DNA of 61,706 nucleotides from Candidatus Omnitrophota bacterium (GTDB lineage Bacteria > Omnitrophota > Gorgyraeia > Gorgyraeales > Gorgyraeaceae), in the NCBI GenBank assembly GCA_042571405.1, contig JBHPHU010000005.1, positions 1 through 61,706 on the forward strand, given 5' to 3'. Position numbers and translations under genes: made by a program. The notes under the pieces were generated by a model, which saw only the letters and a list, made by a program, of their open reading frames with translations, did not search any database and was not told where the DNA came from. Of this stretch, positions 17,765 to 52,274 are shown piece by piece. Numbering within the stretch: the stretch's first letter is position 1; every line of letters begins with the position of its first letter.

Positions 17765-17819
17765 ACCTCTCCGACCTCGTAGGTCGACCTACGAGGTCGA
17801 CCTACGAGGTCGGAGAGGT
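17765..17819. repeat. Palindrome family A, three 13-bp units (55 bp, 26-bp stem)
   Basis: ACCTCTCC-GACCTCGTAGGTC-GACCTACGAGGTC-GACCTACGAGGTC-GGAGAGGT. Confidence 0.9.
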
Positions 17820-17830
17820 GAAAGAGGGAT

Positions 17831-19255
17831 ATGAAGACAAAGGTCGCGATTTATAAACAGCATAGTTTGCGTTATTCAAACAGGCCGCCGTATTCTCCGC
17901 CGGCAATATTTCCGGAATACCCTTTTGAAGATAAGAGGGTTGACGCAGAGAATGAGGCATATTTTTCGTTAAGGGAGTTATTTAAGATGTTAGATCTTGA
18001 TTCTGAGAATTTTGGAAAAAAGCACTGGAATCCTCTTTCTTTTCTCGTGTCGCCGGGTCAAACAGTGCTTTTGAAGCCAAACCTCATGAGACACTTTGCT
18101 GACAAGGGAGCTACGAATAAGTTGATCACGCATGGCTCTATAATCAGGGCAATCGCGGATTATGTATATATTGCCTTAAAGGGCAAAGGAAGGATTATTA
18201 TTGCTGATGGCCCTATGGACGAGGGAGATTTCGGAAAGATTCGCAGGATCGCGGGCCTGGATAAGATAGAAAGATTCTATAGTGAAAGCGCTGATTTTGA
18301 TATCGAGGTATATGACTTGAGACAGGAACAGGTATTCAAGAAAGGCAATGAGATTATCCGCAGGATAAAACTACCCGGTGATCCTGCAGGCTATACGGCT
18401 GTTGACTTGTCCAAAGAGAGCAAGTTTAAAAACGATTCGCTGGACTATACGACGTTCAAGGGAAGCGAATGCATAAGTTCTATTATGAATGCCCACCACA
18501 ATGATAAGAAGAACGAATATCTTATATCCAATACATTGCTCAATGCAGATGTGGTAATCAACATTCCCAAGCTCAAGACACATAACAAGGCCGGAGTTAC
18601 ACTGGCTCTTAAAAATATGGTAGGCATTACAGGAGATAGAAATTGGCTACCGCATTTTAAATACGTTTCATCAAAATCTCCCTGTACGGACGCGTTGTCC
18701 GGACACCGCGTCCGTACAGGTTATGGACAGCTTACGAAGTTGACCAATAAAGGGGTTATGAAATATCTCAAGGATAAGATAAAAGAAGTGAGAGGCCTAA
18801 GGGATTCTGATATAAAAAAGGGCAACTGGTATGGAAATGATATTATCTGGAGGACGATCTTAGATCTATTACAAATAGTTATGTATGCGGATAAAAAAGG
18901 CAAGGTCCGTGAAAAAGCACAGCGCAAGAGTTTTTTTATTGTGGACGGCATAGTCGGAGGAGAAGGAGATGGCCCTATGAATCCTGATCCAAAGCCGTGC
19001 GGTGTTTTAATCGCTGGTTTTGACGGTCCATGCGTAGATATGGCAGCAGCCAGGCTTATGGGATTCGATCCTATGCGCATCCCGCAATTAAAAAACTCTT
19101 CAAGCAATGATAGCAATAACGTGTACAAGGACATAAAGGCTGTATCTAATTTACGCGATTGGAATGGATTTTTATCTCAGTTTAAAGGCAGGTGCCTGGG
19201 TTTTAAGCCATTTTATGGATGGAGGCATCATATAGAGGTAAGAGATGGCGAGTAA
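17831..19255 (+). CDS. DUF362 domain protein
   Basis: VLLKPN, INIPKLKTH..AGVTLALKNMVG and DGIVGGEGDGP motifs. Confidence 0.85.
   Translation: MKTKVAIYKQHSLRYSNRPPYSPPAIFPEYPFEDKRVDAENEAYFSLRELFKMLDLDSENFGKKHWNPLSFLVSPGQTVLLKPNLMRHFADKGATNKLITHGSIIRAIADYVYIALKGKGRIIIADGPMDEGDFGKIRRIAGLDKIERFYSESADFDIEVYDLRQEQVFKKGNEIIRRIKLPGDPAGYTAVDLSKESKFKNDSLDYTTFKGSECISSIMNAHHNDKKNEYLISNTLLNADVVINIPKLKTHNKAGVTLALKNMVGITGDRNWLPHFKYVSSKSPCTDALSGHRVRTGYGQLTKLTNKGVMKYLKDKIKEVRGLRDSDIKKGNWYGNDIIWRTILDLLQIVMYADKKGKVREKAQRKSFFIVDGIVGGEGDGPMNPDPKPCGVLIAGFDGPCVDMAAARLMGFDPMRIPQLKNSSSNDSNNVYKDIKAVSNLRDWNGFLSQFKGRCLGFKPFYGWRHHIEVRDGE
18681..18720. repeat. Palindrome family B, variant copy, in frame in the DUF362 gene
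   Basis: CCTGTACGGACGCGTTGTCCGGACACCGCGTCCGTACAGG with one mismatched pair. Confidence 0.9.
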
Positions 19256-22493: not shown

Positions 22494-23906
22494 ATGTTAA
22501 GGGAGAAGGATCAACTTTTTAGAAGATTATTAATGCTGTCAGATGCGGCCATGATCTGTGTCTCATTTTTTGTCGCTTATGTATTTAGACAGAATATAGA
22601 GATACTGGGGCAACTCTATTCTCTGTCTAAATATTTTAACATATTGGCCCTGGTCTTGTTTTCATGGATAATCGCATTGCGTTACACAGGTCTTTATGAA
22701 TCGTTAAGGAGAGAGAATCTATTCGGGATAACGCGCCGTATAATAAAAAGCGCTTTTTTTGTCATGGTAGTATCTATAGGCGCGATATTTATATTTAAGA
22801 TGGAATTCATAAGCAGGACCTTTATATTGGCCCTGCTTTTTGTGACGAGTTTATTTTTGGTATTCGAGAGATGGTTCGTGGCATCCTGCTTGAGAACTTT
22901 CAGGAAGAAAGGTTATAACTTTAGAAATATTTTGGTAGTGGGCACAGGGCCCAGGGCGGAGAATTTTATAGGACTTGTTCACAAGCATGATGAATGGGGC
23001 CTTAGGATTATCGGCATAATAGACGCTGAAAAAAAGATGCTGGGAAAGACTATAGCCGGGGAAAAGGTGATAGGGCTTCTAAAGGATATACCAAAGATAC
23101 TTATTGAGAACGTAGTGGATGAGGCAATGTTTATAATACCCAGGAAGTGGATACCTTTTATAGAAGAGAGTCTTTTGGCCTGCGAGGTGCAGGGCGTTAA
23201 GACAAATCTTGCCGCTGATTTTTTTAATATGAAGATATCGAGCTGGAGCTCCGGAGAGGTCGGAGGCGTGCCTACTCTGGGGTTTAACACAACAGTTGGC
23301 GAAGAATGGCAATTGTTAGTTAAGAGGTTATCTGATATACTATTATCGTTAGCAGGCATAGTGATTACCCTGCCTATTTTGATAGGAACGGGCATCGCTA
23401 TAAAGATTCTTTCGCGGGGCCCCGCGATATTTAAACAAACAAGAAGCGGCCTCAATGGCAGGCGGTTTGTGATGTATAAATTCAGGACCATGGTGGAAGG
23501 CGCGGAGAATGGGTTAGACAAACTTCGCACCCATAATGAAATGGACGGGCCTGTATTTAAGATGAACAGGGATCCGAGGGTTACTGGATTCGGAAAGTTT
23601 TTACGCAGGAGCAGTATAGATGAATTGCCGCAGCTTTTTAATGTGCTGAAGGGCGAGATGTCTATAGTAGGGCCGAGACCGCCTATACCATCAGAAGTGG
23701 AGAATTACCAGATTTGGCAGAGGAGACGTCTTAGCATGAAGCCAGGGCTTACTTGCTTATGGCAGATAAATGGACGCAATAATGTAGACTTTGAGGAATG
23801 GATGAAGCTGGATTTAAAATATATAGATAATTGGTCATTGGCGTTGGATCTAAAGATTTTGTTAAAAACAGTACCCGCTGTCCTGTTTTCAATAGGCGCG
23901 AGGTAA
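22494..23906 (+). CDS. Polyprenyl-phosphate sugar phosphotransferase (priming GT, WcaJ/CpsE-like)
   Basis: Four N-terminal TMs, a CoA-binding-like domain, and KFRTM, DPRVT, DELPQL, GPRP and PGLT motifs. Confidence 0.92.
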   Translation: MLREKDQLFRRLLMLSDAAMICVSFFVAYVFRQNIEILGQLYSLSKYFNILALVLFSWIIALRYTGLYESLRRENLFGITRRIIKSAFFVMVVSIGAIFIFKMEFISRTFILALLFVTSLFLVFERWFVASCLRTFRKKGYNFRNILVVGTGPRAENFIGLVHKHDEWGLRIIGIIDAEKKMLGKTIAGEKVIGLLKDIPKILIENVVDEAMFIIPRKWIPFIEESLLACEVQGVKTNLAADFFNMKISSWSSGEVGGVPTLGFNTTVGEEWQLLVKRLSDILLSLAGIVITLPILIGTGIAIKILSRGPAIFKQTRSGLNGRRFVMYKFRTMVEGAENGLDKLRTHNEMDGPVFKMNRDPRVTGFGKFLRRSSIDELPQLFNVLKGEMSIVGPRPPIPSEVENYQIWQRRRLSMKPGLTCLWQINGRNNVDFEEWMKLDLKYIDNWSLALDLKILLKTVPAVLFSIGAR

Positions 23907-35229: not shown

Positions 35230-35386
35230 CACGACCAAGATCGAACTGAAATTCCGCAAACTTCCCAATGACCCAAATATGTTCGAGTTCACAGTAAGCT
35301 CGCCATTATTGCGTTCGCAATTCTGCGTACCCAGAGCCATAATCAACCAGCTCCGCGTAGACCTGGAAAAGGCCCTTACGCATTAG
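35222..35386 (+). CDS. Small hypothetical protein (54 aa, not in the ORF track)
   Basis: GGAGG RBS at 35211; MSNTTKIELKFRKLPNDPNMFEFTVSSPLLRSQFCVPRAIINQLRVDLEKALTH*; overlaps the upstream stop. Confidence 0.55.
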   Translation: MSNTTKIELKFRKLPNDPNMFEFTVSSPLLRSQFCVPRAIINQLRVDLEKALTH

Positions 35387-35421
35387 TAGGGGACCCTTAA
35401 GGGTCCCCTACATTGTGGATA
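35384..35421 (+). repeat. 38-bp direct repeat copy 1, containing a perfect 26-bp GTAG-ended palindrome
   Basis: TAGTAGGGGACCCTTAAGGGTCCCCTACATTGTGGATA, identical to 43541-43578. Confidence 0.92.
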
Positions 35422-35473: not shown

Positions 35474-37039
35474 TTATAACCCGTATTTTAGTCTTGGCAT
35501 TAATTTTAGGGCTGCGTCTTTTACTAATTTTATATCTAATAGTTGTATCCAATGCCTATTGTCAGGAGGGAGGGAGGCTATATAGTTATTAATGTCTCCG
35601 GAGGCCAGCCTAAAAAGTATGTCTTTTTCAGAATCATATACATTAATGTAATCACCTATCGCTATTTTTAGATCGTATTTTGTATCTATCAAAAACCCGT
35701 TCATATATCTGTGTCTTTTGTTTAAAGTCCCCGCGAAAATATCTTTATTCAGAGCCAGCTTAAATACAGGGTCTACTACCCAGTCTTCAGAAAAAAATTC
35801 TATATGCCCGATCGGGCCGTATTTACTGTATTGATTGCCGGACACATAAATAACCTTGTTGTCTTGGTATTCATTGAGATCCTGGTTGTTTTTTATGTTT
35901 GTTATAATTCTCTGCTGATGCGCGTTCCAGGTTTTCCAGTGGCCTGAAATGCCCAGGATCGTAAAGATTATCAGCGCGAAGACCAGGGTCTTTATTTTTT
36001 TTGACGCAGGCATTAACACAATAAGGTACGTAAATAGTAATGACCCATAGATAGTAGTTCTATTGCCAAGATTAAAGGCCAACTGTGGATAACGGCCGGT
36101 AACAGCAAACATCAAGAAAGAAGAAAATACCAGGACCATAAGACTTATAATGAGTTTTTTACCCATTCGACCTCGTAGGTCGACCTCGTAGGTCGACCTA
36201 CGAGGTCGAATGGGGTCTAATTTATAAAAAATTACTACAAGGGTAAGGCCTATTGTTAATGATATCAATGATATCTGAGAGAAAGAATAATATATTTTTA
36301 GCCACATCGAAGGTCCGCACATGGAGTCTATAAAGGTTAGGACTTGTAATATAAATTGCTTGATCACGATAGAGACGCTTATTTCTTCGATTATTCTGGG
36401 ACTGCCCATGCGAAACAGTATATTTATAGGGATGAAATACAGCGCATAAATAATGTTAGGAATAATTATAACAGCGCCTTTTTTAAATTCCTTATTTAAC
36501 GCGAATAAAACGAATAGCCCTAGTGCGATCGGGGGAGTGCCGTAAGATAGAAACGAGGCGATCAAGGCTGATAAAAAGGCCGGGATCAGTTTATTGCGAT
36601 GCGCCAAATAAAAAGCGAATAGATACAGGCAAAATGATATGCTGATGTATTGTATCATGAATGAATATACCGTAGAGTCATGTGAAGGAAAGAAGATAAA
36701 CAAAAAAGATGCCCAGAGGGCAGTGTATCTATTTAGAAAGATGTTAAAAAATCCGATCACTAAACAAAAAGATAAAATAGTGTAAAAGATTTTCAGGATA
36801 TTAACAAGGAGTGGATTGTCTATTCGAAACCAATAATACCATATGTAATGGCTAAAATGTTCTATTGGCGTCTCAATAAAATAGCCGTCGGGAATAAGCA
36901 CATCCTTGATATCTTTATTCTCGAGTTTAACCATTACGGCAAAATCATCCGCGCTAAGCCCCGTATTTATCAAAAGATAAGCTATCAGAATAAGACATGA
37001 AAGAAGCAGTAGATTTTCGACCTTAAAGACTTTTTTCAT
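35474..37039 (-). CDS. Polytopic membrane protein, GT-C-like sugar transferase
   Basis: ADD after TM1, about 11 TMs and a soluble C-terminal domain; last gene of an amino-sugar cassette. Confidence 0.55.
   Translation of the reverse strand: MKKVFKVENLLLLSCLILIAYLLINTGLSADDFAVMVKLENKDIKDVLIPDGYFIETPIEHFSHYIWYYWFRIDNPLLVNILKIFYTILSFCLVIGFFNIFLNRYTALWASFLFIFFPSHDSTVYSFMIQYISISFCLYLFAFYLAHRNKLIPAFLSALIASFLSYGTPPIALGLFVLFALNKEFKKGAVIIIPNIIYALYFIPINILFRMGSPRIIEEISVSIVIKQFILQVLTFIDSMCGPSMWLKIYYSFSQISLISLTIGLTLVVIFYKLDPIRPRRSTYEVDLRGRMGKKLIISLMVLVFSSFLMFAVTGRYPQLAFNLGNRTTIYGSLLFTYLIVLMPASKKIKTLVFALIIFTILGISGHWKTWNAHQQRIITNIKNNQDLNEYQDNKVIYVSGNQYSKYGPIGHIEFFSEDWVVDPVFKLALNKDIFAGTLNKRHRYMNGFLIDTKYDLKIAIGDYINVYDSEKDILFRLASGDINNYIASLPPDNRHWIQLLDIKLVKDAALKLMPRLKYGL
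36162..36214. repeat. Palindrome family A, three units, in frame in the membrane-protein gene
   Basis: The 39-bp core is the exact reverse complement of 17773-17811; encodes RPRRSTYEVDLRGR. Confidence 0.9.
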
Positions 37040-38566: not shown

Positions 38567-39514
38567 TTACGATCTTTTTTCTATATAAAATAACGGGCGT
38601 TTGCGTGATTCGTCTAAATTACGCCAGAGATATTCCCCTATTATGCCAAGCATTATCATTTGGATGCCCCCTAGAACTAATACCACCAGCATTACGAGCG
38701 ACCAGCTTTCTATAGGACTATTTGTAATTACTTTCAGCGCTATATATAAAATACCTGAAGCCAAGATAAATAATCCTGTGATACACATTAAGATCAATGG
38801 TGATCCTGAAAAACCTATTAACCAGTCTTTTGCAAGGCCTATGTGAGTTTTGAAACTCCATTTTGATTTGCCGGACATTCGAGTACGGCGTTCATATTCT
38901 ACAGAGTCCTGGCTGAAACCAAGCCATGTTATAAGACCTAACAGTGAAGTGTTGCGCTCCGTACACTCATTGAGCGCGTTTACAGCAGTTTTATCCAATA
39001 AACAGAAATCAGCTTTGGATATATCGATATTGGTTTTACCCGTACCTCCTAACCATGCCAGGATTTTATAGAAGAGTTCAGCTTTTTTTCTGGTATTGAA
39101 TGGTTCGTTATGCCTGTCTTTTCGAACCGCCCAGACTACTTTAGCGCCATTGCGCCATTTTTTTAACATATCCTCGAGGCAGGCTGGGTTATCCTGGCCA
39201 TCAGCAGAGATATATAGCACTATGTTGCCGGCAGCTTCTTTTATACCGGCGCGTAATGCAATATGACTGCCGGATCGCTTGCTTAATCTCAGACATTTTA
39301 CCCTCGAGTCGTGCATTCCTTGAACAACGTCAAATAAATCGTCAGAGGAGTGGTCATCCACCACAATGATTTCAAAGCTGTCCTGTACAGATGCGGTGTC
39401 TAGACACCGCATCTGTACAGGGTCCAAGTTTTCTAATGTTGTAAAGAGTTCATTGATAGTAGTTTTGATATTTTTGGCTTCATTGTAAGCGGGGATTACT
39501 ATAGATATATTCAT
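38567..39514 (-). CDS. GT2 polyprenyl-phosphate glycosyltransferase (GtrB/ArnC-like)
   Basis: IVIPAYNE, VDDHSSD, ADGQD, two C-terminal TMs and GIIGEY...RPLF. Confidence 0.88.
   Translation of the reverse strand: MNISIVIPAYNEAKNIKTTINELFTTLENLDPVQMRCLDTASVQDSFEIIVVDDHSSDDLFDVVQGMHDSRVKCLRLSKRSGSHIALRAGIKEAAGNIVLYISADGQDNPACLEDMLKKWRNGAKVVWAVRKDRHNEPFNTRKKAELFYKILAWLGGTGKTNIDISKADFCLLDKTAVNALNECTERNTSLLGLITWLGFSQDSVEYERRTRMSGKSKWSFKTHIGLAKDWLIGFSGSPLILMCITGLFILASGILYIALKVITNSPIESWSLVMLVVLVLGGIQMIMLGIIGEYLWRNLDESRKRPLFYIEKRS
39382..39421. repeat. Palindrome family B, perfect 40 bp, in frame in the GT2 gene
   Basis: CCTGTACAGATGCGGTGTCTAGACACCGCATCTGTACAGG; encodes DPVQMRCLDTASVQ. Confidence 0.95.
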
Positions 39515-41407: not shown

Positions 41408-42448
41408 TTATTCCCAATTAATGCCTTTTTCTTGCCCGAGTAATACTAGAGGTGGCTCCGGCCTTGATTTAAACCACTCGATTGTTTTAATAAGCCCTTG
41501 TTCAAATGAAACCTCAGGCTGCCACTCTGTTATCTTTCTGAACGCGCTTGTATCCGCAAATAAACGCAGCACATCCCCGGGTCTATTTTTAACATGGTTT
41601 ATGCCCTGTACAGATGCGGTGTCTAGACACCGCATCTGTACAGGGTCTTGGGCATTGATTATATTTAAAATCATTTCTGCTACTTGTTTGATCGAGATTT
41701 CAAAGTCGCTTCCCATATTAAGCGTAAGTCCGATCGCTTCATCGTGTTTTGCCGCTTTGATAAAGCCATTTGCAGTATCTTCTACGAAAGTATAGTCACG
41801 CGTTTGAGAGCCATCTCCAAAAATAATAATAGGTTCTTTGTTGAGGGACCTGACAATAGACTTAGGTATTATTTCTCCCGCATCTCCTTCATGATGCGAT
41901 CGCGGCCCATAAACGTTAAAAGGCCGCATAACTACGGTTTTCAGTCCATAGGTTTTGTGATATGCGCGCGTGTATGCTTCACCTGCCAGTTTGCTTGCCC
42001 CGTATACAGTAGAGGGGTGGGTCGGGTGTGATTCTGACATGGGGACATAATGCGCAGTTCCGTAGACCTCAGAAGAAGAGGAGTGGATGAATTTTTTAAC
42101 TCCAGCCTTGAGAGCCTCTTGTAAGACCATAAGGGTTCCTTCGGCATTAACGCAATGGCTCTCAAAGGGATGTTTGATCGAATGGCGGACCCCCAGGCAC
42201 GCAAGGTGAAAAACAATATCTATATCTTTCATGGCCTTGATTATCTCAGGCGACTCAGTAATACTCCCTAAAATAAATTCAAAGCAGTTGTTGTTTCTAT
42301 GATGGTCTAAATTTCCAAGTTTACCATTACGCAGGTTGTCAATAACACGGACATAACAACCTTCTTTGACCAGAGTGTCTACTAAATGTGAACCAATAAA
42401 GCCAGCGCCGCCAGTAACTAAAACTTTTTTACCTGATAGCTCCATCAT
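41408..42448 (-). CDS. NAD-dependent sugar epimerase/dehydratase (extended SDR)
   Basis: TGGAGFIG, SSSEVYG, YGASK, RPFNVYGP and GDGSQTRD motifs. Confidence 0.92.
   Translation of the reverse strand: MMELSGKKVLVTGGAGFIGSHLVDTLVKEGCYVRVIDNLRNGKLGNLDHHRNNNCFEFILGSITESPEIIKAMKDIDIVFHLACLGVRHSIKHPFESHCVNAEGTLMVLQEALKAGVKKFIHSSSSEVYGTAHYVPMSESHPTHPSTVYGASKLAGEAYTRAYHKTYGLKTVVMRPFNVYGPRSHHEGDAGEIIPKSIVRSLNKEPIIIFGDGSQTRDYTFVEDTANGFIKAAKHDEAIGLTLNMGSDFEISIKQVAEMILNIINAQDPVQMRCLDTASVQGINHVKNRPGDVLRLFADTSAFRKITEWQPEVSFEQGLIKTIEWFKSRPEPPLVLLGQEKGINWE
41604..41645. repeat. Palindrome family B, perfect 42 bp, in frame in the epimerase gene
   Basis: 41605-41647 is identical to 39382-39424; encodes DPVQMRCLDTASVQ. 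Confidence 0.95.
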
Positions 42449-43540: not shown

Positions 43541-43578
43541 TAGTAGGGGACCCTTAAGGGTCCCCTACATTGTGGATA
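43541..43578 (+). repeat. 38-bp direct repeat copy 2
   Basis: Identical to 35384-35421; 12 bp from the comM stop; runs into TGTGGATAA (43571-43579). Confidence 0.92.
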
Positions 43579-48444: not shown

Positions 48445-49398
48445 ATGGCAGGTGGATTGGATTTTGAAAAACCCATATTGGAACTGGAGCTAAAGATAGC
48501 GGAGCTAAAGTCTCTTGCGTCAGATGGCAGCATAAATCTTTCCGCGGAAATAAAGACGCTTGAAGCAAGGCTCGAGAAGGTCAAGAAAGATATCTTCAGC
48601 TCTCTTACGTCCTGGCAGAAAATACAGATTGCCAGGCATCCGAAAAGGCCGTATACCACTGACTATATCAGCATGATAATGGTGGATTTTGTTGAGCTGC
48701 ATGGCGATCGCATGTTTCAGGATGACAAGGCCATGATCGGAGGTTTCGCCAAGATAGATGGAGAAAAAGTCATGGTGATCGGACATCAAAAGGGCAGGGA
48801 CACAAAAGAGAATCTCATGAGGAATTTTGGCAGCGCTCATCCTGAGGGTTATCGCAAAGCAATGAGACTGATGAGGCTTGCTGAAAAGTTTAACACGCCT
48901 ATCGTGACCTTTATTGACACGCCCGGCGCATATCCTGGTATAGGCGCTGAAGAGCGGGGTCAGGCAAATTCCATTGCGCACAATCTGATGGATATGATAT
49001 CTCTAAAGGTACCTGTGATAGTGACAGTTATAGGAGAGGGTGGTTCAGGTGGCGCGCTTGGCATAGGTATAGGCGATAGGGTTTATGTTATGGAGAATGC
49101 GTATTATTCTGTGATATCTCCTGAGGGGTGCGCCGCAATTTTATGGAAAGACAGATTAAAGGCGCCTGAGGCAGCAGAGGTCTTAAAGCTTACCGCAAAG
49201 GATCTGATAGGACTTGAGATCATTGACGGAGAAATAGAAGAGCCCTTAGGGGGCGCGCATAGGGATCCTGAGAAGACTGCTCAGGCATTAAAAAAATGCA
49301 TAAAAAAGGCATTAAAGGAACTCAAGTCAGTCCCTGTAGATAAATTATTAGAGAAACGTTACGAGAAATTCAGAAACATGGGTAGTGTAAAAACTTAA
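48445..49398 (+). CDS. accA: Acetyl-CoA carboxylase carboxyltransferase alpha subunit
   Basis: [30 protein letters not shown] and GEGGSGGA motifs. Confidence 0.97.
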
Positions 49399-49778: not shown

Positions 49779-52274
49779 ATGAGCGAATTTTATCCTTTTA
49801 AGAAAATCGAGAAGAAGTGGCAGAAGGCATGGGAGAGGCAGGGGCTTTTTAAGATGGACCCCGAGTCTTCCAAGGATAAGTATTATTGCCTGATGATGTT
49901 TCCGTATCCGTCTGCCTCATTGCATGTAGGACATGGCAGGAACTATATTATAGGAGATGTTGTAGCGCGTTACAAGATCATGCATAAGCTTAATGTCCTG
50001 GCGCCAATGGGCTGGGACGCGTTTGGTCTTCCCGCAGAAAATGCTGCTATAAAAAGCGGCATCCACCCCAAGATTTCTACATTAAATAATATAAAGACAA
50101 TGAAGAAACAGCTCAATGCCTGGGGCGTGGGGTATGACTGGGATAGAGAGATCGCTTCATGTATGCCTGATTATTACAAATGGACACAGTGGATATTTTT
50201 AGAGCTCTATAAAAAGGGCCTTGCCTATAAGAAAAAAGCTCAGGTCAATTGGTGCCCCTCTTGTCAGACAGTGCTTGCAAATGAGCAGGTAGTGGATGGC
50301 GCGTGCGAAAGGTGTTCCGCTGAAGTTGAGCTGCGTAGTCTCGAACAATGGTTTTTCAAGATAACTGATTACGCGCAGAGGCTTCTGGATGATTTGAGTC
50401 TGTTAAAGGATTGGCCGGAGCGGGTAAGGATCATGCAGAAGAACTGGATCGGCAGGAGCGAGGGCGTTGAGATAGATTTTAAGCTCGCAGATGATGGTCA
50501 AGGCGAAACCTCCGCCAGCTTAGCTGGCGGAGGTTTCGCCTTGACGTGTTTTACCACCAGGGTGGATACAATCTATGGCGCTACATATATGGTGCTTGCC
50601 GCGGAACATCCAATGGTTGAGGAGCTTATAAAAGGTTCTGATAAAGAAAATGATATAAAAAAATTCATCGCAGACGTTAAAAAGGAAAGTTTTACGGACA
50701 GGGTTTCAGCTACTGCTGAGAAAAAAGGCGTATTTACAGGCAGATTTGTCATAAACCCCGTGAATGGTAAAAAGATCCCGCTGTGGATTTCGAATTATGT
50801 GCTGATGGAATATGGTACAGGCGCGGTAATGGCAGTGCCTGCGCATGATGAGAGAGACTTTGAGTTTGCGAAAAAGTATGACTTAGAGATAGTGGTTGTG
50901 ATCGATAATCCAAAAGAGCGCCTTGATGCAAAGAGCATGAAACAGGCTTTTGTAGAAGAAGGGGTTATGGTGAATTCCAGCCAATTCAATGGCCTGCCAA
51001 GTCTTGAGGCAATTGAAAAAATCTCAGATTATATGGAAAAAGAAAAGATAGGAAGAAGAAAGATCCATTATAAACTGCGAGACTGGCTTATCTCCAGGCA
51101 AAGGTATTGGGGCGCGCCCATACCTATGGTGTATTGTGAAAAATGCGGCATACAGCCGGTAGATGAAAAAGATCTTCCGGTTCTTTTGCCTGAAAAGGTT
51201 AAGTTTAAACCTCGTGGTGAATCGCCATTAAAAGATGCGGAGAGTTTTGTCAATACAAAATGCCCTAAATGTAAATCCAAAGCTCGACGAGAAATCGACA
51301 CAATGGATACATTCGTGGATTCTAGCTGGTATTTTCTGAGATTCTTATCTCCAAAAAACAACAAAAATCCTTTTGATAAAGAATTAGTCAATAAGTGGCT
51401 TCCTGTAGATCAATATATCGGAGGCGTGGAACATGCGATTCTGCATTTAATGTATTCAAGATTTATCGTAAAGGTGCTTCATGACTTGGGTCACGTGGGT
51501 TTTAAAGAACCATTCGCCAAACTCTTTACACAGGGGATGATCGTAAAAGACGGCGCAAAGATGTCCAAGTCAAAAGGCAATGTCGTGAGTCCTGACGCGC
51601 TTATAGAGAAATACGGCGCGGACACAGTGAGGTTTTACACATTGTTTATCGGCCCGCCTGAAAAAGACGCGGAGTGGAATGATCGCGGCGTCGAAGGCGC
51701 GTGGAGGTTTCTTAACCGAGTGTGGCGACTTGTGGAACGGGATACGGGGAACGGGATACGGGGAACGGGGGATGGAAATAAAATTTCATCTCTTAAGCGA
51801 AAGACACATTTTACTATTAAAAAAGTTACAGAAGATATAGAAGGCGCTTTTCATTTCAATACAGCATTAAGCGCGATAATGGAATTAGTAAATGAGATTT
51901 ATTCTATCCCGAATCCCGAATCCCGAATCCCGAATCCCGAATTAAAAAAAGCCATAGAAACAGTCGTGATCCTCCTTGCGCCTTTTGTGCCGCATATTGC
52001 TGAGGAGATGTGGGAGATATTAGGGAATAAAAAGAGCGTATTTGAAGCAGACTGGCCGGGATATGACGAGGCTGCGCTTGTTCAGGATAGGATCACCATG
52101 CCGGTTCAGGTAAATGGCAGGGTGCGCTCAAGGATAGAAGTTGGATCAAGCGCGGATGAAGAAGAGATAAAAAAGATTGTCATGGAAGATCCCCTGGTTA
52201 GTAAATGGACCCAAGGCAAACCACCCAAGAAAATTATTGTTGTAAAAGGAAGATTAGTAAATCTCGTGGTATAA
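49779..52274 (+). CDS. leuS: Leucine-tRNA ligase
   Basis: MFPYPS..LHVGH, GTGAVMAVPAHDERD, DWLISRQRYWG and KMSKSKGN motifs. Confidence 0.98.
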   Translation: MSEFYPFKKIEKKWQKAWERQGLFKMDPESSKDKYYCLMMFPYPSASLHVGHGRNYIIGDVVARYKIMHKLNVLAPMGWDAFGLPAENAAIKSGIHPKISTLNNIKTMKKQLNAWGVGYDWDREIASCMPDYYKWTQWIFLELYKKGLAYKKKAQVNWCPSCQTVLANEQVVDGACERCSAEVELRSLEQWFFKITDYAQRLLDDLSLLKDWPERVRIMQKNWIGRSEGVEIDFKLADDGQGETSASLAGGGFALTCFTTRVDTIYGATYMVLAAEHPMVEELIKGSDKENDIKKFIADVKKESFTDRVSATAEKKGVFTGRFVINPVNGKKIPLWISNYVLMEYGTGAVMAVPAHDERDFEFAKKYDLEIVVVIDNPKERLDAKSMKQAFVEEGVMVNSSQFNGLPSLEAIEKISDYMEKEKIGRRKIHYKLRDWLISRQRYWGAPIPMVYCEKCGIQPVDEKDLPVLLPEKVKFKPRGESPLKDAESFVNTKCPKCKSKARREIDTMDTFVDSSWYFLRFLSPKNNKNPFDKELVNKWLPVDQYIGGVEHAILHLMYSRFIVKVLHDLGHVGFKEPFAKLFTQGMIVKDGAKMSKSKGNVVSPDALIEKYGADTVRFYTLFIGPPEKDAEWNDRGVEGAWRFLNRVWRLVERDTGNGIRGTGDGNKISSLKRKTHFTIKKVTEDIEGAFHFNTALSAIMELVNEIYSIPNPESRIPNPELKKAIETVVILLAPFVPHIAEEMWEILGNKKSVFEADWPGYDEAALVQDRITMPVQVNGRVRSRIEVGSSADEEEIKKIVMEDPLVSKWTQGKPPKKIIVVKGRLVNLVV
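50497..50545. repeat. Perfect 24-bp-arm palindrome in frame in leuS
   Basis: GTCAAGGCGAAACCTCCGCCAGCT-T-AGCTGGCGGAGGTTTCGCCTTGAC. Confidence 0.95.
51734..51942. repeat. Pair of mutually complementary 7-bp tandem arrays in leuS
   Basis: (GGAACGG/GATACGG)x5 at 51734-51768 and (ATCCCGA)x5 at 51906-51940. Confidence 0.88.

Follow-up and report, generated by a model that had tools for sequence, protein, structure and literature searches.

The window analysed here is the whole 61,706-nucleotide stretch of contig JBHPHU010000005.1 (positions 1 to 61,706, forward strand; GenBank assembly GCA_042571405.1) from a Candidatus Omnitrophota bacterium, and it carries on the plus strand, at 49779..52274, the leucyl-tRNA synthetase (LeuRS) gene leuS, in whose coding sequence a perfect 49-bp palindrome lies at 50497..50545. 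The genome of the window (G000) is a metagenome-assembled genome (MAG) of 1.156 Mb in 60 contigs, 60% complete and with 40.8% G+C; two sister species of the same genus, G001 (97% complete) and G002, served for comparison. The open reading frame (ORF) of leuS encodes 831 amino acids and is intact, its product matches the LeuRS structure 1h3n (E = 1e-257), shares 88-90% identity with LeuRS of the sister species, and is the sole LeuRS-grade match in G000. Pfam places the editing domain (PF13603) at residues 221-419, together with catalytic and anticodon-binding domains, and the motifs HVGH (49-52) and KMSKS (594-598) are present, with H49, G51, H52, K594, M595, S596, K597 and S598 invariant in a 37-sequence LeuRS alignment. 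The gene thus has all that characterises a bacterial LeuRS, i.e., a class I core, a CP1 editing domain with its Thr-rich motif, an anticodon-binding domain, and an uninterrupted frame.

The palindrome consists of a left arm (GTCAAGG-CGAAA-CCTCCGCC-AGCT; 50497..50520, plus strand) and a right arm that is its reverse complement (50522..50545, minus strand), each of 24 nt, 100% complementary, and separated by a single central nucleotide. It is held within the 17 codons G240-T256 (50496..50546, plus strand), which encode the peptide GQGETSASLAGGGFALT. Translation and the alignment of relatives define the loop around it by two plus-strand anchors, the upstream GRSEG motif (G225-G229, 50451..50465) and the Thr-rich editing-domain motif TTRVDT (T259-T264, 50553..50570), from which the palindrome codons are separated by C257-F258; the insert thus begins 19 and ends 35 residues into PF13603. 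A preliminary description, made from the sequence alone, had reported the perfect 24-bp arms, 29 residues between GRSEG and TTRVDT, and an end of the insert two codons before TTRVDT, and all three statements agree with our translation. Within TTRVDT, T259, T260, R261, D263 and T264 are invariant in the 37 sequences and the V occurs in 28/30 relatives; being common to nearly all of them, this V is unrelated to the insert. The arm is found at only two places in the window, both of them the palindrome's own, and 0/100 dinucleotide shuffles gave any match. An Rfam search of the hairpin returned only sub-threshold matches to generic hairpins, the best reaching 27.3 bits where the gathering score is 100. 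With no array and no Rfam match, we also dropped the readings as CRISPR repeat, tRNA-like element or known small RNA.

We then examined the length of the GRSEG-TTRVDT loop in 30 genomes, namely the window's own, two others in its genus, a further 21 in the family, and six elsewhere in the order and class. Of these, 23 have 17 residues, four have 21, one each has 16 and 18, and G000 alone has 29. A wider survey added 80 named public loci, the closest being mostly Candidatus Omnitrophota MAGs or single-amplified genomes (some genomes occur in both sets), and among the 110 loci examined 108 could be parsed, of which 96 have 17 residues, with the 29 of G000 again the longest. The figure of about 17 residues given as typical in the preliminary description was therefore accurate, as was its view of the palindrome as an insertion relative to other LeuRS. 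It had added that relatives with an equally long loop lacking DNA symmetry would speak against an insertion; no relative equals 29, and the DNA of 17-residue loops forms perfect stems of 3-8 bp at best. The alignment with sister genomes that it had proposed places this insert in neither G001 nor G002. In a quick maximum-likelihood tree of LeuRS (IQ-TREE, loop masked), in which several deep forks are weak, the clade (G000,(G001,G002)) has a support of 99, and the nearest outgroups (G007, G005/G020, G012/G023 and G017) all have 17-residue loops. The absence of the insert from both sister species and the support for this clade point to arrival of the element in leuS after G000 split from G001 and G002.

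The element is not unique to leuS. Its core, GGCGAAACCTCC[G/A]CC, which is invariant in the family and lies at 50502-50516 and 50526-50540 in the two arms, recurs on ten other contigs of G000 (C6, C10, C11, C15, C27, C30, C36, C37, C40 and C58). A 10-mer core with one mismatch hardly discriminated (67 sites, reversed control 55), and longer cores were used instead; the pattern GGCGAAACCTCCRCC, allowing at most one mismatch, was searched in 121 sampled genomes of the class and matched 22 times in G000 (reversed control 1), 17 times in G001 and once in G002, with the remaining genomes at control level. Besides the leuS copy, G000 has seven more full hairpins and seven single arms, so that full doublets number eight in G000 and seven in G001. 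The sequence is thus repeated far above chance, as expected of a repetitive extragenic palindromic (REP) element, and the leuS copy consists of two inverted REP units forming one hairpin, as in a REP doublet (REPIN); we refer to it as family 1. The genome-wide search for the arm had been suggested in the preliminary description, which had not recognised the dispersed family or its transposase. The fifteen full REPINs vary at stem positions 5-7, 21 and 23, and at these positions the same variant occurs in both arms in 24 cells as against 7 with the variant in one arm only. Since the arms mostly share their variants, perfect arms are the norm of the family and the leuS copy is not dated by its symmetry; the earlier suggestion of a recent arrival therefore stands in so far as arrival followed the split from the sister species, whereas the perfect symmetry on which it was based is no mark of special recency. 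The symmetry could be kept either by selection on the hairpin or by the manner in which doublets form. As a separate observation, unrelated phyla also contain hairpins built on this core (TTCGGAGGCGAAACCTCCGA…TCGGAGGTTTCGCCTCCGAA; loci L048-L053, of which 5/6 are from a Candidatus Ryanbacteria MAG and L050 from Jorgensenbacteria, and L047 from a Nitrospiraceae MAG). As one Patescibacteria MAG has five copies, a related REP/RAYT system may be shared or convergent. Window positions 48736-48750, in the upstream ORF 48445-49398, hold a 12-nt exact match to the REP core (GGAGGTTTCGCC) encoding I-G-G-F-A-K; it sits in an apparently conserved motif and is probably a chance resemblance rather than a REP relic.

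Family 1 surrounds a transposase gene. On contig C6 of G000 the ORF at 22548-23249 encodes a Y1 (HUH) transposase (Pfam Y1_Tnp PF01797, E = 6e-9, 36.5 bits against a cutoff of 23) with the motifs YHIYNRG and PNHFHLV (HUH), resembling the REP-associated tyrosine transposases (RAYTs); YHIYNRG, NHFHL and SYIHLNP are conserved in eight homologs. The pattern search located family-1 REPs on both sides of this gene, at C6:22516-22540 (16 nt before the RAYT ATG) and at C6:23222-23246, where the inverted REP encodes the last RAYT residues (…GGGFALTT*), and in addition a complete in-frame REPIN at C6:22705-22757, between YHIYNRG and NHFHL (HUH). Over 22 nt, the leuS arms match the 3'-terminal REP of this gene exactly. 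The C6 locus has the layout of a REPtron, a RAYT gene flanked by its own REPs, and since the same REP is involved, the leuS element is a REPIN in the sense of Bertels and Rainey (2011; PMC3116915). We consider it highly probable that the palindrome, real on the assembly, is a REPIN carried in frame by leuS as a passenger and belonging to a small dispersed family linked to the C6 RAYT.

Details of hairpin recognition, cutting and rejoining are known from the RAYT of E. coli. By analogy with this enzyme and with IS200/IS605, the C6 RAYT would spread REPINs by binding the hairpins of REPs in single-stranded DNA and cutting and rejoining them. Di Nocera et al. (2013; PMC3733652) and Bertels et al. 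(2017; PMC5581495) cite the in vitro work on the E. coli RAYT. One family-1 copy would then have entered leuS after the split from both sister species and survived because it has no stop in the frame used, adds a net +12 residues without a frameshift, and sits at the tip of the first beta-hairpin of CP1; the REPIN is stop-free in this frame and in +2, and has TAG at its centre in +1. Selection would retain only in-frame, stop-free copies in loops or linkers.

REPINs are inverted REP pairs that form a hairpin and are tied to RAYT transposases (PMC3116915, PMC5581495). The leuS family resembles them in its over-representation, inverted pairing, covariation between arms, and the same REP flanking a Y1/HUH gene. 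It differs from classical REPINs, which are described as extragenic, in that the leuS copy and many others lie in frame within genes (5/15 family-1 loci in G000 fall within recognised genes), in its dimensions (24-nt arms, a spacer of 1-12 nt, and about 15 loci in a partial genome of 1.16 Mb), and in its host, an Omnitrophota MAG rather than a proteobacterium. The C6 RAYT likewise departs from the classical enzymes in scoring below the NCBIfam cutoff and in carrying a REP within its own coding sequence. A closer precedent is given by Di Nocera et al. (2013; PMC3733652), in which REPs and REP dimers lie in frame in known genes, tRNA synthetases among them, encode 20-30 residues, and are argued to sit in loops or linkers. 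With these GTAG/CGTC REPs the leuS element shares the in-frame position, a synthetase host, and the presence of different REPs at one site in related species; unlike them, family 1 is untagged and belongs to another host phylum. Rickettsia palindromic elements (RPEs) also occur in frame in many unrelated housekeeping genes and are thought to be compatible with the fold (PMC10969869), so that the leuS element is comparable with them as an in-frame palindromic passenger in a small genome. RPEs are, however, about 100-150 bp long, encode a conserved peptide, and belong to Rickettsia, whereas the leuS element has 49 bp, resides in Omnitrophota, and has a cognate RAYT. We know of no dedicated transposase for RPEs. 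Identification of the leuS element as an RPE was rejected for its length of 49 bp and its Omnitrophota host.

The same loop has received other elements in relatives. In G001 and G002 the 21-residue loop arises from a different palindrome, AAAAAAGCCGAGG-TCCAG-CCTCGGCTTTTTT, which belongs to a second REP family (family 2); G009, placed away from the genus in the tree, shows at this loop position a degenerate hairpin resembling family 2, and G010 and G011 carry other short, partly palindromic inserts there. A groundwater metagenome contig (X1) has a family-2 allele at the same leuS site, independently. One could read this as a single old colonisation, in which an ancestral REP entered the loop in the genus or earlier and was later replaced by the G000 REPIN. 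Such turnover would account for the REP or REP-like hairpins of G001, G002 and G009, for the short palindromic inserts of G010 and G011 (in G011, GGTCCAAGGCGAGGCCTTGGCC resembles the collapsed ends of the G000 element), and it has a parallel in the different REPs near the same recB site in two Xanthomonas species described by Di Nocera et al. (2013; PMC3733652). We regard it as unlikely, because the insert-bearing genomes do not form a clade, a statement that rests mainly on the well-supported genus clade and on the 17-residue loops of the outgroups (G007, G005/G020, G012/G023 and G017) in a quick tree with some weak forks. The flanks also speak against it; upstream of the insert, G000 has a native-like K-L-A-D-D, like that of relatives without an insert (KIADSD, KLADTD), whereas the K-L-E-K-S of G001 and G002 comes from the A-run of REP family 2. 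The non-clade distribution suggests that the loop was hit repeatedly, and the contrast between a native-like and a REP-derived flank indicates that, most likely, families 1 and 2 reached the leuS loop separately within the genus.

The appearance of the site before insertion can be judged from an X2/X3 contig, from a relative with about 81% identity, which has an empty site with 15 letters instead of window 50488-50538 and encodes K-L-V-D-S-D-V-T-L-T-C-F (…GAT GTC ACC TTG ACG TGT). The outer bases of the palindrome, GTCA and CCTTGAC, already adjoin in this empty site, and L255-T256 are thus probably native. Such pre-existing ends would explain why the gain is +12 residues rather than the +17 expected from the 17 codons that hold the palindrome. 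The adjoining GTCA and CCTTGAC hint at target similarity or microhomology, X2/X3 being a relative and not an ancestor, and for the same reason we infer the exact insertion junctions only indirectly. That these bases lie side by side in an uninserted allele would also suit formation of the palindrome in place, by local inverted duplication or hairpin-templated repair, which we nevertheless consider most improbable, since the inner 38 nt (invariant core and GCCAG extension) are identical to copies elsewhere, notably the 3' REP of the RAYT gene.

Modelling of the loop, also proposed earlier, was performed with AlphaFold2 from the 37-sequence alignment (mean predicted local distance difference test score, pLDDT, 86.7; predicted template modelling score 0.81). 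Residues 240-251 have a pLDDT below 50 and lie between strands 226-236 and 254-259, and residues 253-256 join the return beta-strand. The REPIN is thus predicted to form, at the first beta-hairpin of the CP1 editing domain, a floppy surface tip, and its final codons (F-A-L-T) would substitute for native residues of the return strand. Given the low confidence of the model at this tip (240-251), we regard the insert as most probably a tolerated passenger, neutral or slightly deleterious, and not a functional module of the enzyme; its neutrality is assumed.

The hairpin might instead have been kept in leuS for a role in RNA or DNA, as a translational pause, an RNase III or attenuation site tuning the level of LeuRS, or a binding site for RAYT. 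The RNA of 50470-50575 folds with -57.3 kcal/mol (z = -8.67), and 0/200 shuffles were as stable; a terminator scan flags the hairpin as terminator-like, with a 24-bp perfect RNA duplex followed by the T-rich tail ACGTGTTTTA, and RNase III is present in 5/5 relatives checked, while its absence from the search result for G000 (PF14622) says nothing in a genome 60% complete. Such a role would also fit the frequent position of REPs of the genus at domain junctions (ProRS, ValRS, DXS) and the hairpins in the same leuS loop of G000, G001, G002 and G009, with shorter inserts in G010 and G011. The likeness to an intrinsic (Rho-independent) terminator extends to the G+C-rich stem and T-rich tail, but the element is translated in the middle of the ORF of an essential, intact gene and has only four consecutive T, and no terminator function is implied. 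Moreover, the insert is absent from 23/30 relatives, the hairpins at the site come from different, unrelated REP families, the leuS sequence equals that of copies apparently lying between genes, and domain junctions and loops simply tolerate insertions. We therefore give a retained RNA or DNA role little credence and prefer the tolerated REPIN passenger.

To see how REPs are placed in other genes of the lineage, 24 REP loci of G001 were fetched (8 of family 1 and 16 of family 2), and 15/24 fall within open frames of 200 aa or more. Ten loci with the element far from the frame ends were given to Pfam, and nine of them have domains flanking or around the element. The in-frame hosts in G001 are ProRS, ValRS, DXS (DXP synthase), QueA, RibD, GH94, a DUF362/Fer4 (ferredoxin) protein, a beta-propeller protein, and a GT4-heparinase ORF. 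In ProRS a family-1 REPIN occupies aa 259-278, directly before the editing domain (287-398); in ValRS a family-2 doublet lies between the catalytic and anticodon-binding domains, and in DXS a REP lies between domains. The proS gene of G000 has no REPIN and retains the native linker, so that G001 alone has the family-1 REPIN there. Because presence and absence in leuS (G000) and proS (G001) are reciprocal, family 1 was mobile in both lineages after their split, and this reciprocity lends indirect support to the RAYT-catalysed mobility that we propose by analogy. In G000 itself, RsmD contains a family-1 arm, as does the linker of a TonB_C-OEP protein, with zero net change of length in both; the TonB_C-OEP protein is a single ORF in 10/10 family genomes searched. 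Four loci (L009, L163 and L181 of G001, and L008 of G002) have in-frame REPs at domain borders in LeuRS, ProRS and ValRS. REP family 2 (AAAAAAGCCGAGG-N5-CCTCGGCTTTTTT) has the look of a bidirectional intrinsic terminator (A6-stem-loop-stem-T6), yet lies within essential ORFs. The rsmD gene of G011 (L156) has its own insert at the same loop, gaining about 12 residues (…ITRPLTHPSPLRGEGEG…), and in proS of G002 (L190) the linker that holds the REPIN in G001 contains a tandem GQGTRDK GQGTRDK.

Several observations weigh against the interpretation of the leuS element as a RAYT-borne REPIN passenger. Its ends, TGGT[C/G][A/G]AGG..., do not carry the GTAG/CGTC tag of the classical REP super-families, and GTAG stands beside the C10 copy only. 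The sole NCBIfam match of the C6 ORF, to the REP-associated tyrosine transposase NF047646, reaches 39.3 bits against a curated cutoff of 80, for which reason we describe the enzyme as divergent and RAYT-like and not as a certified equivalog. A simple peel-and-paste model fails to explain the pattern of overwriting with little net gain (+4 in proS, the cases of rsmD and the TonB_C-OEP linker, and 49 bp in 17 codons yielding +12 in leuS). A 24-bp RNA duplex followed by the ACGTGTTTTA tail inside an essential mRNA could be costly. No public sequencing run shares half or more of the sequence words of the stretch (best share 0.09), no RNA run containing it is listed, and contigs assembled at the site from four runs are from relatives only, with 80-95% identity, none spanning the palindrome; one X2/X3 contig tracks the left arm to 50511 and then diverges for 110 letters.

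With no reads placed on the site and a 60%-complete MAG of 60 contigs, the palindrome might be thought an artefact of a mis-assembled metagenome bin. This is scarcely credible, given that the frame is open through the insert while the rest of the protein is 88-90% identical to sister LeuRS, that the sequence belongs to a genuine family with members on 10 other contigs, and that the family-2 allele of the X1 contig at the same site indicates that hairpins in the leuS loop are real in nature.

RAYT genes of the relatives repeat the pattern of the C6 locus. The G001 ortholog (84% identity) is likewise flanked by REPs, and the G002 enzyme (56% identity to that of G000) is flanked by and contains REP family 2, the exact pattern of which occurs 20 times in G001, 12 times in G002, 4 times in G009, and not in G000. 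At the RAYT locus of G015 the REP is a simple hairpin, TGGTCGAGG-CGAAA-CCTCGACCA, resembling each leuS arm. Across C6 and the relatives' loci (L055-L061), each RAYT lineage has its own REP sequence, most sharing a core CGAGG-N5-CCTCG, and the layout is common, with one REP 25-62 nt upstream and another over the C-terminus or stop. At 6/8 loci compared (G000, G001, G002, G015, G024 and G007) the RAYT gene itself also contains an in-frame REP, near aa 54-70 and between YHIYNRG and HUH, which was not seen in G031 and G040. We found no mention of such a position-conserved REP within RAYT genes in the available parts of PMC3733652, PMC3116915 and PMC5581495. Five more Y1_Tnp-like paralogs in G000 (contigs C8, C9, C13, C27 and C38; 31-40% identity to the C6 RAYT) were noticed, and they may partner the other palindrome families of this genome.

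A bolder combined proposal, which we offer tentatively and think rather doubtful, is that the REPs of this lineage are adapted to coding sequence, that the leuS loop is a preferred RAYT target, and that the REP within the RAYT gene is a cis-element controlling the RAYT. Coding-adapted REPs would lack stops, insert in loops or at domain junctions, and return repeatedly to one leuS loop; the native GTCA next to CCTTGAC would mimic the joined ends of a REPIN and so make a preferred RAYT target. The cis-element is suggested by each RAYT lineage keeping its own REP at the same place in the gene (6/8 loci, with unrelated REPs), and if true, a RAYT-controlling REP within the gene would be a previously undescribed REPtron layout.

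Intragenic REPs, including those in tRNA synthetases, have already been published by Di Nocera et al. (2013; PMC3733652), as have the Rickettsia RPEs. We found no paper pairing REPIN/RAYT systems with Omnitrophota in the literature, where co-mentions look incidental. Within the reach of our literature search, four things are new. The host phylum is new for such elements; genic copies are dense, with three synthetases among the hosts in one genus; one LeuRS loop has been colonised repeatedly by different REP families that have a RAYT each; and a REP keeps a conserved position inside RAYT genes (6/8 loci). These extend REPIN/RAYT systems to Omnitrophota, in whose small genomes, with little intergenic room, roughly a third to a half of REPIN copies lie in frame within genes, three tRNA synthetases included. 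An odd feature of an essential gene is thus ordinary mobile-DNA biology, and annotators need assume neither an error nor a new enzyme module. The repeated, independent occupation of one LeuRS loop is a natural experiment on the target choice of RAYTs and on the tolerance of the CP1 hairpin, and the conserved REP inside RAYT genes is a lead on transposase control. The single leuS event is of moderate interest, and of greater interest as a view of coding REPINs in Omnitrophota.

Three further families of perfect palindromes are found in the window, some carrying GTAG. Palindromes with arms of 25-26 nt (CCTCGTAGGTCGACCT and GTAG) lie at 17765-17819 and 36162-36214, with 11 copies genome-wide; the 528-aa open frame around the latter has no Pfam match. 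Those of a third family (CCTGTACAGATGCGGTGTCT/AGACACCGCATCTGTACAGG) lie at 18681-18720, 39382-39421 and 41604-41645, in frame in a DUF362 protein, a GT2 glycosyltransferase, and a GDP-mannose-dehydratase-like epimerase, and 11 of its 18 copies genome-wide are deep in long open frames. Two identical 26-bp palindromes (GTAGGGGACCCTTAAGGGTCCCCTAC; 35386-35411 and 43543-43568), each followed by the same 10 bases (attgtggata), have the classic look of GTAG-tagged REPs and are apparently intergenic. In all, G000 has 67 perfect hairpins (stem of at least 14, loop of at most 12), whereas a shuffled genome yields 0. Taking together the four multi-copy families with most members (18, 11, 5 and 5 copies), 18/39 copies lie at least 25 aa deep in open frames of at least 150 aa, compared with 1150/1500 random 45-nt segments equally deep in such frames, a measure that is a proxy and not a gene call. 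The palindromes are thus rarer in genes than by chance, yet far more genic than the name "extragenic" implies.

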